Source: a virus | Lineage: Duplodnaviria > Caudoviricetes | IMG/VR virus record: IMGVR_UViG_3300033072_000326 | Span: 24,043 to 88,042 of that record | Direction: 5' to 3' (one strand) | DNA: 64,000 nt | Position numbers and translations under genes: made by a program | Shown here: one piece after another, positions 1,628-39,968 of the stretch | Layout: each line of letters opens with the position of its first letter | Numbering within the stretch: the first letter of the stretch is position 1 | Notes under the pieces: generated by a model | Told to the model about the DNA's origin: nothing | Seen by the model: the letters and a program-made list of their open reading frames with translations, nothing else | Database searches by the model: none

Positions 1628-1655
1628 TTGACAAATAGAATTTTCATGCTATAAT
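1628..1655 (+). promoter_or_regulatory. Sigma70-like promoter
   Basis: TTGACA-16 nt-TATAAT with extended -10 TG. Confidence 0.7.
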
Positions 1656-1680: not shown

Positions 1681-2196
1681 GTGTATACATATTCTCCTTC
1701 TGACGTTTCGATTCTAATTGCCGGACATGAAATCAGTGGACTGGCAGATGGAACATTCGTCACGATTGAACCAGAAGAGAAATTCTTCAAATCTAAACGT
1801 AATGCTGATGGCTCTATTTCTAGGACATTGCAACGTACACAACCACATAAACTAACACTGTCTATTACACAAACTTCTCCCTCAAACGACTATCTCAACC
1901 TTCTACTTAATCTAGATAAGACATTTGCTGATGCTATTGTTCCAGCTTACATTAAAGACTGGAGTAGCGGGACAAGCATTCTTATTGCTCAAATCTGGAT
2001 TGACAGCTTACCACAGATTGTCTACGCAAATGGGATGGAGATGCGTGAATGGGAGTTGTGCTTCACATCTGAAATCATTAGCTTGTCTGGTGAAAACCAA
2101 GATGGACTATATCAGACATTCCTCAAAACTGTAAGTAGTGGGTTGCCATCTTTTGACAATCTTCGCACTTATGCTTCTTCCTTGATTGGTGGCTAA
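1681..2196 (+). CDS. Tail tube-like paralog 2
   Basis: GTG start. TYSPSDVSILIAG..ISG motif shared with the 1031 gene. Confidence 0.65.
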   Translation: MYTYSPSDVSILIAGHEISGLADGTFVTIEPEEKFFKSKRNADGSISRTLQRTQPHKLTLSITQTSPSNDYLNLLLNLDKTFADAIVPAYIKDWSSGTSILIAQIWIDSLPQIVYANGMEMREWELCFTSEIISLSGENQDGLYQTFLKTVSSGLPSFDNLRTYASSLIGG

Positions 2197-2197
2197 T

Positions 2198-2764
2198 ATG
2201 GGATACGTTCGTACATACTCCCCAGAAGACCTCATCATTCAGGTGGGAGGTAATGAGGTTGTGGGATGGAACAGTGTTAAGGTGGAGCGCACAACACCTG
2301 TTTTCAAACAGATTGAAGGCATTAGAGGTAGTGTAGCTCGCGCACAAACACTACGTTCTTCGGCAACAATTACACTGTCTATCGACCAAAATTCAACATC
2401 TAATTTGATGCTAAATACGTTGTTGAAATTAGATGAACGTGGGCAAGGTAAATTGCTCAATGTGTTCATCAAAGATAGCACAATGCCTGCAACAGTTGGT
2501 GGAATGTTGGTTGATGGCGGTACAACAATTCAAAGCTTGAGCTGCTACATTGACGGCTATCCAGATGTTGAATTCACAGATGAAAGTGTGGACAGAGTTT
2601 GGACAATTAGAGCATTGTCTGTAACAACAATGAACATTGGTCAAGGGTATTCCATGCGTGAATACTTGATTGAGCAAGGATTGGCTGTTCTCTCTCCATA
2701 CATTAATTCTGCAACGTCTGCAATTTCTGAAAGCCTTCCAAGCATTACACGACTATTTAAATAA
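2198..2764 (+). CDS. Tail tube-like paralog 3
   Basis: TYSPEDLIIQVGG..VVG motif; ATG 1 nt after the previous stop. Confidence 0.65.
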   Translation: MGYVRTYSPEDLIIQVGGNEVVGWNSVKVERTTPVFKQIEGIRGSVARAQTLRSSATITLSIDQNSTSNLMLNTLLKLDERGQGKLLNVFIKDSTMPATVGGMLVDGGTTIQSLSCYIDGYPDVEFTDESVDRVWTIRALSVTTMNIGQGYSMREYLIEQGLAVLSPYINSATSAISESLPSITRLFK

Positions 2765-2782
2765 TTCAAGGAGCAAAGAATA

Positions 2783-3205
2783 ATGAACGAACTTCCTCAA
2801 ACAGAAGTGGTGGTAAAAGGTAAAACCTATCTGATTACAGCATTTGGTGGTGTAACATCTGCCAACTATTACAAACGATTGATGCGTCTTGTTGGCCCTG
2901 CGTTCGTAGCAATGCAAGGCGAAGGTGATGTGCTAGAGGGTAAGAGTGCAGCACAAGTGGCTATGGAAGTGCTGATGGATTCTACAGATAAAGTAGAAGT
3001 GGAGCCACTACTAATCGACTTGATTAAAGGTGCAACTTTTGCAGGTAAAACCATTGACGCTGAAACTCATTTTGCTGGTAATCTAGGCGGTCTTTTCACT
3101 CTTGTACTTGAAATTGTCAAGTTCAACTTTGAAGATGTTTTTACCGATCTCGTTACCGCCGTGGGTGGGGTGGTAGCGGGCAAGATGCTCAACTCCCAAG
3201 AGTAA
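2783..3205 (+). CDS. Tail assembly chaperone (G-like)
   Basis: 140 aa between tube genes and TMP; ends FNFEDVF, typical of this chaperone type. Confidence 0.7.
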   Translation: MNELPQTEVVVKGKTYLITAFGGVTSANYYKRLMRLVGPAFVAMQGEGDVLEGKSAAQVAMEVLMDSTDKVEVEPLLIDLIKGATFAGKTIDAETHFAGNLGGLFTLVLEIVKFNFEDVFTDLVTAVGGVVAGKMLNSQE

Positions 3206-3420
3206 GTAAGAAGATAAAAGAAGTAGAAGATAATTTGTCCGTTGACCCGATTGTTTTCACAATAGTTACATCAGAGAAACCTCTTGCAACTTATTGGGAA
3301 CTACACAATCGGTATACATTCAGCCAAATGCTTGATCTGTACGAGATGATGGAGGCAAGAGCCACTATTGCAGATGAGGCGCACAAAGAGGCTGAACGAA
3401 ACAGCGGAGGTGGTAGTTAA
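3133..3420 (+). CDS. Tail assembly chaperone frameshift extension (GT-like), -1 frame
   Basis: The -1 frame is open from 3133 to 3420, overlaps the chaperone end, and has a T5 run at 3138-3142. Confidence 0.6.
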   Translation, partial: RCFYRSRYRRGWGGSGQDAQLPRVSKKIKEVEDNLSVDPIVFTIVTSEKPLATYWELHNRYTFSQMLDLYEMMEARATIADEAHKEAERNSGGGS

Positions 3421-3424
3421 AATT

Positions 3425-3456
3425 GCCCTTGCCTTTATGGCAGGGGCTTTTACTTT
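3425..3456 (+). terminator. Rho-independent terminator before TMP
   Basis: GCCCTTGCC/GGCAGGGGC stem then TTTTACTTT. Confidence 0.65.
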
Positions 3457-3467
3457 TAAGGAATATA

Positions 3468-4910
3468 ATGGCTGAAAAAATAGCTGATTATTTTGGGCAG
3501 CTTGGGTTTAGAGTTGATGATAAAGGGTTAAAGGAATTTGTCGCTAAACTTGATGCCTTGGCTAAACAGATGAAGGGTCTGACGAAAGCAGCTGGCACTA
3601 CCAATGCAATACAAAAAGTTGCAGACGGAATGAAGTCTATTGGTGACAAGGCTAAGGTTGCTGGTGATGCTGTTGATAAAGCAGCAGATAAGATGGTGAG
3701 GGCTAATAAGAAGGTTACGCAAGCTCAAATAAAAGAGCAACAAAAACTGGATAAAGCTCTCAGCAGAGGTAACGCATCTAACCCATTAACAGAATTACAA
3801 AATAGAATTAAGGCAAACACAGCTAAACGAGCCGGTATGCAAGGTGGCGCAAGTGCTGCCGAACAAGCCCGTCTCGATGCTTGGTTTGCCGCAGCCGCTA
3901 AAAAAGAACAAGCGTTAATGCGAAGTAGCAGTGCTGCATACAGACGATCTTCTCTGCTTGGCAGTAGGCAAGTTGCGGGTATTGTTGGTGGTGCTAGTCG
4001 AAGTGTTGCTGCCAGAAGCGCAGCAGATGCCGCAGAGCTTGCACGTTATGAAGCTTGGTTTGGTAAGGCAGAAAGTAGAGACGCTGCATTAGGTATTGCT
4101 GGTGGTAAAGACTACCGTCGTTCTGTAAATGCAGGTCAAGCAAACATCCGTAGTGTAATGGCAGACATTCGTGCTGCAAAAGTACAACGAGAGAAAGCCA
4201 GTGCTGTTCGTGTTGACAGAGATGCCCTACGGGTACAACGTCGTGCAGAAACAGCTGCTCGTGAAGATGAACGTCGTTTCCAAAACCGCGTATCACGTAC
4301 ATACTCTCCCACCACATCTAAGCTGATGCGTCAGCAAGCTGACTTCACTAAAGTGCAAGAGCGGTATAACACAGCCGTAGCAACAGGTAATAAGTTGGAG
4401 GCAGAACGCTACCGCCATGCAATGAAATACCTTCGTTCAAACATTCGTGATTTGAACAGAGAGCGTTTCGAGAAGAACTTAGGTGTGTTCGGAAGAGCCG
4501 GTAGAGCAATGGGGTACGGCAGAGGTGCTACAGGTGCTCTCGCAATGCTTCAACCTTCTCTTGGTATGGTGGCAGCTGGTGGTGCCGCTGGTGCTGGCTA
4601 TTTCCTGACAGATGCTTTCCGTCAGACGATGGATATTCAATCGTACAAGCAGCAGTTTCAAGCGTTGTATGGTACGGAAGACTCTGGTAAAGCAGGTATG
4701 CAATCCTATCTGGATTATAGCAATAAGATGGGTACGAATGCAAGTAAGAACATGCAAGAATACCTACGTTTCATGTTTGCATCTAAAGATACAGTTGGTT
4801 TGGATACAGGTAGAGGTATTTACGAATCCTTCTCTGTTCTTGCTAAAACCCGTGGTGTAAAAGGTGATGCGTATAGCCGCTCCCTCACTTCCCTCTCACA
4901 AATGTTGAGT
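3468..4910 (+). CDS. Tape measure protein, exon 1 (481 aa)
   Basis: ATG at 3468 after AAGGA. Ala/Lys/Arg-rich helical sequence ending ..SLSQMLS at the intron 5' splice site. Confidence 0.9.
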
Positions 4911-4982
4911 TAACCCTTGGCTCAACTAAAACCTTATTAATTGCTGGAACACCCTAAAGACCCAGATACTCTTAGTCAGATG

Positions 4983-5011
4983 TTGACAGAGTGACAATTC
5001 TGTGGTATAAT
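4983..5011 (+). promoter_or_regulatory. Sigma70 promoter inside intron
   Basis: TTGACA-17 nt-TATAAT with extended -10 TG, 34 nt upstream of the HNH ATG. Confidence 0.75.
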
Positions 5012-5044
5012 ATGTTTTTAACATAGAAATGGGCAATCAGCAGC

Positions 5045-5704
5045 ATGAAACCACATCCGATTTATACAAAATACCTTATTACGCAAGATGGTCGAGTTGT
5101 AAACTCTATAACTGGAAAAGAGTGTAAACAACGAGAAAACGACTTTGGCTACATGCTAGTGTCTGTCGAAAAGAGTTCCAAAAGGGTTCACAGGCTTGTT
5201 GCAGAAACTTATTTAGAAAATCCTCAAAACAAGAGAGAAGTCAATCACAAAGATTGTGATAAGAAAAACAATCATGTTGACAATCTTGAATGGGTGTCTA
5301 GTAAAGAGAACAAAGCACACGCTTGGGAACACAACCTCTATTCAGACATAGCAGAAGACCATTATGCGGCTATCTGGTCTAACGACGAAATCCATCAAAT
5401 ATGTAAAATGCTTGAAGATGGTGTAAGTAATAAAGTAATTTCAGAAATAACGGGTATGCACAAAGATCAAGTGGCACACATAAAACGTGGCGACTTGTGG
5501 GCAAGTATTTCATCACAGTACAATATCATCAGAAAGTCAAAAGAACGTTGGTCTGATGATTTGATTGAGACTGTGTGTAGAATGTTATCTGAAGGTGTTC
5601 ATTACGCGGAAATAGCAAGAACTCTGTCACTACCGGACAGAAGCGTAAATAGGATACAAAACAGAAAACTACATACTCGTATATCGGATAAATATAAGTG
5701 GTGA
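5045..5704 (+). CDS. Intron-encoded HNH homing endonuclease
   Basis: VHRLVAETY...EVNHKDCDKKNNHVDNLEW HNH motif plus C-terminal HTH-like repeats; lies between Q and R (L6). Confidence 0.92.
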   Translation: MKPHPIYTKYLITQDGRVVNSITGKECKQRENDFGYMLVSVEKSSKRVHRLVAETYLENPQNKREVNHKDCDKKNNHVDNLEWVSSKENKAHAWEHNLYSDIAEDHYAAIWSNDEIHQICKMLEDGVSNKVISEITGMHKDQVAHIKRGDLWASISSQYNIIRKSKERWSDDLIETVCRMLSEGVHYAEIARTLSLPDRSVNRIQNRKLHTRISDKYKW

Positions 5705-5874
5705 TGTTCAACGACTATCGAAAACACGTAGAAATACGGAAGTGAGTAGAGTACACTCAAGCGAGTGGAAACATAAGGCACCGAAAGGTGAAGATATAGT
5801 CTGATCTTGTGTGAAAGCACAAGCTGCACGTAGTGGTGCGGGGGAGGTGTAGCGAGCCTCCTTGAACAACAATG

Positions 5875-6969
5875 AAAGGCAGCCTGATGAGCGAAGAAGT
5901 TAAGTCACAGTTTAGCGAACATATGGGAGGAGGTTTGTCCATCTTTGCTGAAGCAATTACAGGTAAGAAAGGTGTAGAAGCAACAAAAACCTTCATGGAT
6001 GGTATGAAGAAGGGTTTGTACGACAGTGCTAAATGGCTGCCAATTGTAGCTGAACGCATGAAGAAAATGGCGTATGAAAGTGGTGTTGTTGACAAGAGTA
6101 CAAAGAACCTTGAGTCTTCTGTCAACCGCTTGAGCAATGCTTGGTTTGAATTGATGTCCAACAGCGAAGAGAATGGATTGGGTGGTGTGATGGCTCGTGT
6201 CATTGACTACACAACAGAGAAACTTCGTGACTTGGATAAATGGCTACAGAACAACAAAGAGACGATTGACACGATTGGTGCTGCATTTGATGTTGCATTC
6301 GCAGCAGCTAAGTTGTTGTTCAACTATCTCGTAAGCGACACAGGTGTTCTCATCCTTCTCATCACATTGGCAAGTAAAGCCGGTAAGATATTGAAAGGGA
6401 TGTTGCCTATGGCACGTCTACTTCCATTCTTCATTCTGGCAGGTTTGTTCACCGAGATTAAGAGTACAATTGAAGGTGCAGACACCATCTTTACGCGGAT
6501 GGGTATTACAGCTAAGCAGATGGCTGACCACTTCGATAAGTATGGGAAGATGTACGGCATTGTTGGTGGTGCTGTAGTCGGTGCAAATACAGGCAAGGTG
6601 GGCGGTGCATACGGGGCAGCTGGTGGTGCAATTATTGGCGGTGTTCTTGGTGCTAACATTATGTCTGATGAGCAGGCACGCCGTCGCACTATCATCCGCG
6701 AAGCATTCAAAGAGAAAGGTGCAGCACTTTGGAACAATGCTAAGGTGATTAACAATGCACTTGGTGCAGGTATGACACCTGAAGAACTTCAAAGCATGGG
6801 TGCAACCCCTTATCAAATGAAGGCAGCCACAGGGGATATTCCACGCCCTGCAACAAAAGGCGGTGTTGTTATCAACGGGAATGTGAACGTAACAGCTGAT
6901 AATGTCGAAGCGTTCCAGAAATCTTTGGAAGCGGAAGCAGCAAAAGCAGGAGCAAAAGGTAAACAATAA
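5875..6969 (+). CDS. Tape measure protein, exon 2 (364 aa)
   Basis: KGSLMSEEVKSQFSE continues the tape-measure QM.SKG...EE motif; hydrophobic/Gly-rich segments. Confidence 0.9.
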   Translation, partial: KGSLMSEEVKSQFSEHMGGGLSIFAEAITGKKGVEATKTFMDGMKKGLYDSAKWLPIVAERMKKMAYESGVVDKSTKNLESSVNRLSNAWFELMSNSEENGLGGVMARVIDYTTEKLRDLDKWLQNNKETIDTIGAAFDVAFAAAKLLFNYLVSDTGVLILLITLASKAGKILKGMLPMARLLPFFILAGLFTEIKSTIEGADTIFTRMGITAKQMADHFDKYGKMYGIVGGAVVGANTGKVGGAYGAAGGAIIGGVLGANIMSDEQARRRTIIREAFKEKGAALWNNAKVINNALGAGMTPEELQSMGATPYQMKAATGDIPRPATKGGVVINGNVNVTADNVEAFQKSLEAEAAKAGAKGKQ

Positions 6970-22514: not shown

Positions 22515-22542
22515 ATTATACCACAGATATTCAACTTGTCAA
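22515..22542 (-). promoter_or_regulatory. Sigma70-like promoter
   Basis: TTGACA-16 nt-TATAAT, TGTGGTATAAT. Confidence 0.65.
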
Positions 22543-27143: not shown

Positions 27144-27172
27144 ATTATAACACAAATCGTCTTACATGTCAA
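27144..27172 (-). promoter_or_regulatory. Consensus sigma70 promoter for SSB
   Basis: TTGACA-17 nt-TATAAT. Confidence 0.8.
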
Positions 27173-39841: not shown

Positions 39842-39968
39842 CCGATGTGTAAAATGTCTTCACATAAATATTGTCAACAACAGCATTATACTCGTTGTCA
39901 AACTCCGTGTCAATGTTGTCTAGCTCGTCTTGTGCTAGCAGAGTGTCAATTGATTCTTGCATGTTCAT
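39834..39968 (-). CDS. 44-aa acidic micro-protein (not in ORF track)
   Basis: SD AAGGA; MNMQESIDTLLAQDELDNIDTEFDNEYNAVVDNIYVKTFYTSEE. Confidence 0.5.
   Translation of the reverse strand: MNMQESIDTLLAQDELDNIDTEFDNEYNAVVDNIYVKTFYTSEE
39885..39913 (-). promoter_or_regulatory. Consensus sigma70 promoter (within small ORF)
   Basis: TTGACA-17 nt-TATAAT. Confidence 0.6.

Follow-up and report, generated by a model that had tools for sequence, protein, structure and literature searches.

The window, the whole 64,000-nucleotide stretch of DNA analysed here, is taken from an 88-kb uncultured virus in IMG/VR that is estimated to be 71% complete. On its forward strand, a gene for a tail tape measure protein is present in two open pieces, and the segment between them holds a group I intron core and a gene for an HNH endonuclease (Table 1). 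The upstream frame is closed by the TAA at 4911-4913, which constitutes the first three bases of the intron, and the downstream frame is open again from A5875. Ligation at AGT/AAA leaves the frame open and results in a protein of 845 amino acids. The stop at TAA 4911, the resumption at 5875 and the terminal G are all part of the original prediction and hold at these coordinates in the window.

Table 1. Features of the interrupted tape measure gene and its intron, in window coordinates
Feature	Position	Strand	Details
Tape measure exon 1	3468..4910	+	481 codons from ATG 3468; last base U4910
Group I intron, td-like (IA2-type)	4911..5874	+	964 nt; final base G5874
Tape measure exon 2	5875..6969	+	364 codons plus stop; phrog_5255 match
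P1	4904-4910/4920-4926	+	7 bp; exon GUUGAGU with internal guide GCUCAAC
P10	4915-4918/5876-5879	+	CCUU with exon 2 AAGG, 4 bp
P3	4932-4937/5773-5778	+	CCUUAU/AUAAGG, 6 bp
P4-P5 domain	4942..5042	+	Rfam partial match, model positions 60-96
P4	4942-4947/5037-5042	+	pairing computed from window
P5	4952-4954/5031-5033	+	pairing computed from window
L5 insert, ~80 nt	4955-5030	+	folds as two hairpins
Perfect sigma-70 consensus promoter	4983..5011	+	TTGACA, 17 nt, TG, TATAAT; 12/12 match; in L5
P6	5043-5046/5704-5707	+	pairing computed from window
HNH homing endonuclease gene	5045..5704	+	219 aa, looped out of P6a
P6a	5051-5054/5698-5701	+	pairing computed from window
3' ribozyme half	5698..5874	+	P6a', P6', J6/7, P7, P7.1, P7.2, P3', P8, J8/7, P7', P9, P9.1, P9.2, terminal G
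P7	5713-5718/5796-5801	+	pairing computed from window
P7.1	5727-5730/5735-5738	+	GAAA loop
P7.2	5754-5758/5763-5767	+	pairing computed from window
P8	5779-5782/5787-5790	+	GAAA loop
P9	5806-5812/5817-5823	+	GAAA loop
P9.1	5825-5829/5836-5840	+	pairing computed from window
P9.2	5843-5847/5857-5861	+	pairing computed from window
Site 2, empty in window	5900..5901	+	GAAGAAGU/UAAG; 253-nt-class ORF-less group I intron in L005, L015, L016
Site 3, empty in window	5916..5917	+	258-nt group I intron in L016

The second exon belongs to the tail length tape measure protein family phrog_5255 (1.9e-13, PHROG search), and exon 1 alone matched no Pfam or PHROG family. A tblastn search with exon 1 against the phage collection gave no matches, and megablast with the whole gene against the same collection returned about 100 nt of the intron core as the sole match. 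The joined protein aligns with proteins annotated as tape measures in Pseudomonas phage PAK_P3 (3e-28) and Pectobacterium phage phiTE (3e-25). The gene is flanked by a tail assembly chaperone (phrog_1613) upstream and by a baseplate hub (phrog_196), and PAK_P3 and phiTE have their chaperone, tape measure and baseplate hub genes in this same order. Family membership and the position between chaperone and baseplate both identify the gene as a tail tape measure.

Alignments of the joined protein run gap-free over the junction against the uninterrupted tape measure proteins of PAK_P3 and phiTE and against proteins P0002 and P0016. The junction reads QMLS/KGSLMSEEVK here, QMMGKGQVMAEELK in phiTE, QMMNKEQVMSEELK in PAK_P3, QMTSKNRIYSEEL in P0002 and QMLNKNQLMAEEVKSQFSEH in P0016. 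The closest uninterrupted homologue is P0002 (753 aa), which shares 44.7% identity with the joined protein along 634 residues. Since the P0002 alignment begins at the methionine of ATG 3468 and passes the junction without a gap, the mature protein is taken to be 845 aa long, a length that presupposes translation from that ATG. A terminator-like hairpin with a U tract is located at 3425-3447, between a 61-aa ORF (3235-3420) and ATG 3468; the mechanically called start of the ORF, TTG 3423, is unlikely because the hairpin overlaps it. An exhaustive search of representative proteins with exon 2 as the query returned 84 proteins, and in dozens of them (most of the 84), ranging from about 440 to 1,940 aa, residue 1 of exon 2 maps to the interior of the protein. 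When longer relatives of exon 2 were sought by a word-indexed protein search, none appeared at 1e-10.

The insertion point, hereafter site 1, lies inside the most conserved motif of the gene, and the residues that flank it are adjacent in all uninterrupted homologues. No intron-less site-1 allele was found among close relatives when IMG/VR was scanned with a degenerate pattern for the two exons in joined form; the junction therefore rests on homologues of at most 45% identity together with ORF-less introns at the same site in related phages. The predicted AGT/AAA junction, tape measure identity and 845-aa product are borne out by the gap-free alignments, by phrog_5255 and by gene order, the comparison with uninterrupted homologues having been proposed in advance.

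The helices named in the original prediction all pair as described, and P5, P6, P6a, P9.1 and P9.2 can be added to them. The conserved core, consisting of P3-P8 and P4-P6, is present along with the P3/P7 pseudoknot and the terminal G. In P1, U4910 forms a wobble pair with G4920 at the 5' splice site, and the L1 loop (4911-4919) contains both the in-frame TAA and the intron strand of P10, a short helix that is offset by one base. The J8/7-P7' segment, AAGAUAUAGUC, matches the consensus of the Rfam model, and an unconstrained minimum free energy fold of the isolated P4-P5 region yields P4 and P5. P6 and P6a close round the open reading frame, which places the ATG of the endonuclease within P6 and its TGA within the P6/P6a internal loop.

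P7.1 (5727-5738) and P7.2 (5754-5767) lie between P7 and P3', show compensatory changes in both helices, and are placed as in the annotated td intron of Aes508. A layout with P7.1 and P7.2 is reportedly what defines class IA2 in the classification of Michel and Westhof, and the order P7, P7.1, P7.2, P3', P8 is the td layout, in agreement with the IA2 (td-type) class first assigned to this intron. P2 is absent, with just 5 nt (4927-4931) separating P1 from P3; it is also missing in the same-site intron of the related phage L005 and present in the second intron of L005. Since P2 is a variable peripheral element, its absence does not exclude class IA2.

At the gathering score of Rfam Intron_gpI (RF00028; 50 bits), a search of the whole window gives no match. 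In E-value mode, a search of the sub-region aligns the model to 5553-5823 with 31.7 bits (E = 5e-6), where J6/7 to P9 align very well, and to a second piece that corresponds to the P4-P5 domain, the two being separated by the ORF. The Rfam search that had been put forward as a check on the intron thus recovers the core, at a score below the gathering cut-off. We ascribe the low score to interruption of the core by the 660-nt ORF and the ~80-nt L5 insert, given that introns without an ORF at this site exceed the cut-off (57.2 bits in L005, 66 in L015 and 61.6 in L016).

By blastn, 360 phage records contain homologues of the 3' half, among them the td intron annotated in Aeromonas phage Aes508; others are found in split terminase or DNA polymerase genes in phages of Klebsiella, Escherichia, Vibrio, Psychrobacter and Pseudomonas. 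An alignment of 12 related phage introns over the 3' domain was used to assess covariation. RNAalifold found P7, P7.2, P8, P9, P9.1 and P9.2 unaided, and 22 of the 30 pairs have changed on both sides. Once P7.1 is included, 94% of the cells are standard pairs and compensatory change is seen in 26 of 34 pairs, compared with 35-51% paired in a control in which the 3' partners were slid by 1-3 columns. None of 500 shuffles matched any of the five covariation measures. P3, which spans the ORF, pairs at six of six positions in each of the 11 introns for which both halves were available, and does so with nine different helix sequences. The structure is far beyond chance.

The open reading frame within the intron matches Pfam HNH_3 (4.5e-8; 33.1 bits vs a cut-off of 24.8) and PHROG 59 (phrog_59, 1e-42), and aligns with the structure of I-HmuI (PDB 1u3e, residues 10-97, E = 1.7e-6), as expected from the HNH gene originally proposed to lie there. 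The catalytic histidine and asparagine of 1u3e are conserved within an H..N..N motif of the pattern NHKD...NN...NL.WV...N, and the C-terminal half contains two helix-turn-helix modules (Pfam HTH_23). The gene has a weak Shine-Dalgarno sequence.

The L5 insert contains a perfect sigma-70 promoter with an extended -10 TG, located 34 nt upstream of the endonuclease ATG. With six perfect sites in the window vs 0.06 expected, host-type promoters seem to be in use in this phage, and host sigma-70 may transcribe several of its units. The five other perfect TTGACA-N16-18-TATAAT sites are at 1628-1655 (+), 22515-22542 (-), 27144-27172 (-), 39885-39913 (-) and 61507-61535 (-). The DNA polymerase intron of KP2025, read by eye, contains a similar L5 insert with TTGACA-17-TAACAT in the same place. 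The endonuclease would probably be transcribed from the host-type sigma-70 promoter in L5. A transcript started in L5 would lack the segment from P1 through the upstream strand of P5, and the endonuclease ATG would hence be unpaired. In the full ribozyme, the ATG would be buried in P6, so that translation off the late pre-mRNA would be low and folding would proceed undisturbed.

Three relatives, the IMG/VR contig L005 and the metagenome contigs L015 and L016, harbor an ORF-less intron of 244-245 nt at exactly the same phosphodiester bond as the window. Their identity to the window is 82% for exon 2 of L005, 97% (amino acid) and 94.7% (nucleotide) for exon 1 of L015, and 71% (amino acid) for L016. 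The first 22 intron nucleotides at site 1 are identical in the window and in all three relatives. The window intron and the ORF-less copies share the guide region and differ in the core, with about two-thirds of the positions in the 3' half identical.

The three relatives also contain a second intron (73-78 bits) 26 nt downstream of site 1, with its own P1 (GAGGU/GCCUC, read by eye in L005). L016 contains a third, 16 nt past the second site (Rfam 47.9 bits, E = 2e-11). The intron clusters span 5417-6213 in L016 (three introns), 5018-5541 in L015 (two) and 10-532 in L005 (two). The tape measure motif of these relatives accommodates two or three introns in a stretch of 42 coding nucleotides, with mini-exons of 26 and 16 nt left between them. 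With both introns removed, L015 aligns base for base with the full exon 2 of the window (81-99% identity per 100-nt block), which makes the window a natural intron-minus allele at sites 2 and 3.

We conclude, with a probability of about 0.93, that the tape measure gene of this PAK_P3/phiTE-like myovirus contains, within its most conserved motif, a mobile self-splicing group I intron belonging to the T4 td type. Judging from the structure, the intron would fold on the late pre-mRNA into P1-P10 with the P3/P7 pseudoknot, and an external guanosine bound in P7 would attack after U4910, at the U-G wobble of P1. Exon 2 would be positioned by P10, and the freed 3' OH of U4910 would attack after G5874. 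Ligation of ...CAAAUGUUGAGU to AAAGGCAGC... would then provide the message for a single tape measure protein. On unspliced RNA, ribosomes would halt at the TAA with which the intron begins, and it is reasonable to infer that tail assembly depends on splicing. The endonuclease, as an I-HmuI-like homing enzyme, is predicted to cut or nick tape measure alleles that lack the intron in co-infecting relatives, and repair of the cut allele would copy the intron in.

A different fate of the endonuclease can be envisaged, in which the ribozyme splices and the enzyme no longer acts in homing, being either inactive or re-used as a packaging-associated HNH protein or an anti-competitor weapon. The site-1 intron lacks any ORF in three of the four known relatives, as expected late in a homing cycle. 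The ORF in the window, however, is full length, its H-N-N residues align with those of I-HmuI, both C-terminal helix-turn-helix modules are in place, and it has a consensus promoter of its own, all of which make the loss of homing here unlikely.

Less probable still is a decayed or splicing-incompetent insertion, with the tape measure made as two polypeptides of 481 aa and 365 aa, the second starting at the AUG at 5872-5874, the last three bases of the intron. Insertions of HNH genes that do not splice are on record, such as mobE, which splits NrdA in Aeh1, and HNH_245 of CB7 (PMC7344957); an in-frame ATG is indeed found at 5872, and the window copy scores under the Rfam cut-off, for which the ORF and the L5 insert account. 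However, no Shine-Dalgarno sequence precedes ATG 5872, and the two polypeptides would be split within the most conserved motif, between residues that are neighbours in every uninterrupted homologue. Such a reading is rated very unlikely because the whole catalytic core, with all of its helices and the J8/7 consensus, is intact and under compensatory selection. An intein is ruled out by the stop codons that close the frame and by the ribozyme core found there, and a free-standing HNH gene between two real genes by the intact core and by the adjacency of the junction residues in homologues.

Given a mobile td-type intron at site 1, a wider proposal concerns the motif 'SQML-SKGxLMSEEVKxQFSEH', which may be a hot spot with three group I sites in 42 coding nucleotides. 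Near-identical phages (95% nt in exon 1) contain different sets of introns: the phage in the window has a single one, the armed intron at site 1, and its relatives have ORF-less introns that fill either the first two sites or all three. These sets could reflect ongoing competition, in which the armed intron would cut rival alleles in co-infection and neighbouring introns would disrupt each other's targets, with the endonuclease timed by the host-type promoter in L5 and its ATG masked in P6 on late transcripts. We consider this proposal possible rather than probable and put it forward tentatively.

The large terminase gene of the same phage likewise seems to be interrupted by a group I intron without an ORF, located outside the window (G000:C1:15943-16188; 1501-1746 of locus L003; Rfam 35.3 bits, E = 1.6e-7). 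The gene pieces encode a 70-aa N-terminal part with Walker A (L003 1344-1556) and a 413-aa C-terminal part (1794-3035), and a 250-aa ORF lies directly upstream (L003 626-1378). A cmscan run over the whole L003 locus missed this intron, and a narrower scan and a genome search both found it, which looks like a filter effect. The terminase gene of FKP3 (PP895363; L006 1335-2670) apparently contains two introns in tandem, of which one bears an HNH gene and the other lacks an ORF. Database entries for 18-1-2, KP2025 and Pseudomonas phage PaoP5 list the DNA polymerase as two pieces (L007, L009 and L013). For FKP3, 18-1-2 and KP2025, databases annotate the split genes only and not the td-like introns.

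As had been anticipated, gene callers turn the tape measure gene into two separate genes plus an HNH gene; the same applies to the relatives, in which the 355-aa protein P0001 resembles such a split call, and to the phage's own terminase. Split gene calls make tail-length predictions and protein clustering wrong for this group of phages unless the introns are removed first. A group I intron that bears an ORF may score well under the Rfam cut-off, yet be recoverable through ORF-less relatives at the same site. Relatives with one, two and three introns in one motif form a compact set, found in nature, in which the gain of introns, the loss of endonucleases and the competition for sites can be studied within a structural gene. 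The three-site cluster, variably occupied in near-identical phages, is the most interesting addition. The current understanding of group I introns is unchanged.

Tape measure introns are already known in other phages, and the intron in the window is a further example. In prophages of the Bacillus cereus group, group I introns of classes IA2 and IA1 occupy three sites in tape measure genes; TMP-IVS1 and TMP-IVS2 belong to class IA2, and one, TMP-IVS3a, has an HNH gene (PMC2504315). A tape measure intron is also listed for Lactobacillus delbrueckii phage JCL1032 (PMC2504315), and Cluster J mycobacteriophages contain spliced introns in tail genes (PMC3706429). The rarity implied by the original prediction was thus overstated. 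In the phiTE-like Certrevirus phages, introns bearing HNH genes have been shown to splice, none of them in tape measure genes (PMC7344957).

The window intron resembles those of the Bacillus cereus group in the type of host gene and, for IVS1 and IVS2, in class IA2. In both systems an in-frame stop codon lies at the start of the intron or close to it, one gene can offer several insertion sites, and the same site may hold different introns, as HNH-bearing or ORF-less copies. The Bacillus cereus-group elements belong to temperate prophages of the siphovirus type, which have Gram-positive hosts and tape measure proteins of more than 1,200 aa, whereas the uncultured phage here is a PAK_P3/phiTE-like myovirus with a protein of 845 aa, and the two are likened by description only. 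Unlike the Bacillus cereus-group genes, those of the relatives described here hold three sites within 42 coding nucleotides.

The td intron of Aes508 (NC_019543) is homologous in its 3' core, with 75.5% identity over 104 nt, and shares the order P7, P7.1, P7.2, P3', P8, P7', P9, P9.1, P9.2, with P3 covarying. Both loop out their endonuclease gene from the P6 region. The td intron encodes a GIY-YIG enzyme and interrupts a gene of nucleotide metabolism, whereas the intron here encodes an HNH enzyme in a structural gene. P2 is present in td; the window intron lacks it and has an additional L5 insert with a promoter.

I-HmuI, a nicking enzyme encoded in the DNA polymerase intron of Bacillus phage SPO1, shares with the endonuclease described here an N-terminal beta-hairpin and an HNH catalytic domain, and both are encoded within group I introns of phages. 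The similarity is distant and limited to residues 10-97, and the two helix-turn-helix modules in the C-terminal half set the window protein apart.

The nearest relatives of the ribozyme in the phage collection are in FKP3, Escherichia phage 18-1-2 (ORF-less, DNA polymerase) and KP2025. The HNH-bearing terminase intron of Klebsiella phage FKP3 is 78% identical over 92% of the 3' half, and the ORF-less DNA polymerase intron of Klebsiella phage KP2025 shares 62% of the 5' half, including the L5 insert. These three introns are present in different host genes and hence have different P1 and P10 guide sequences.
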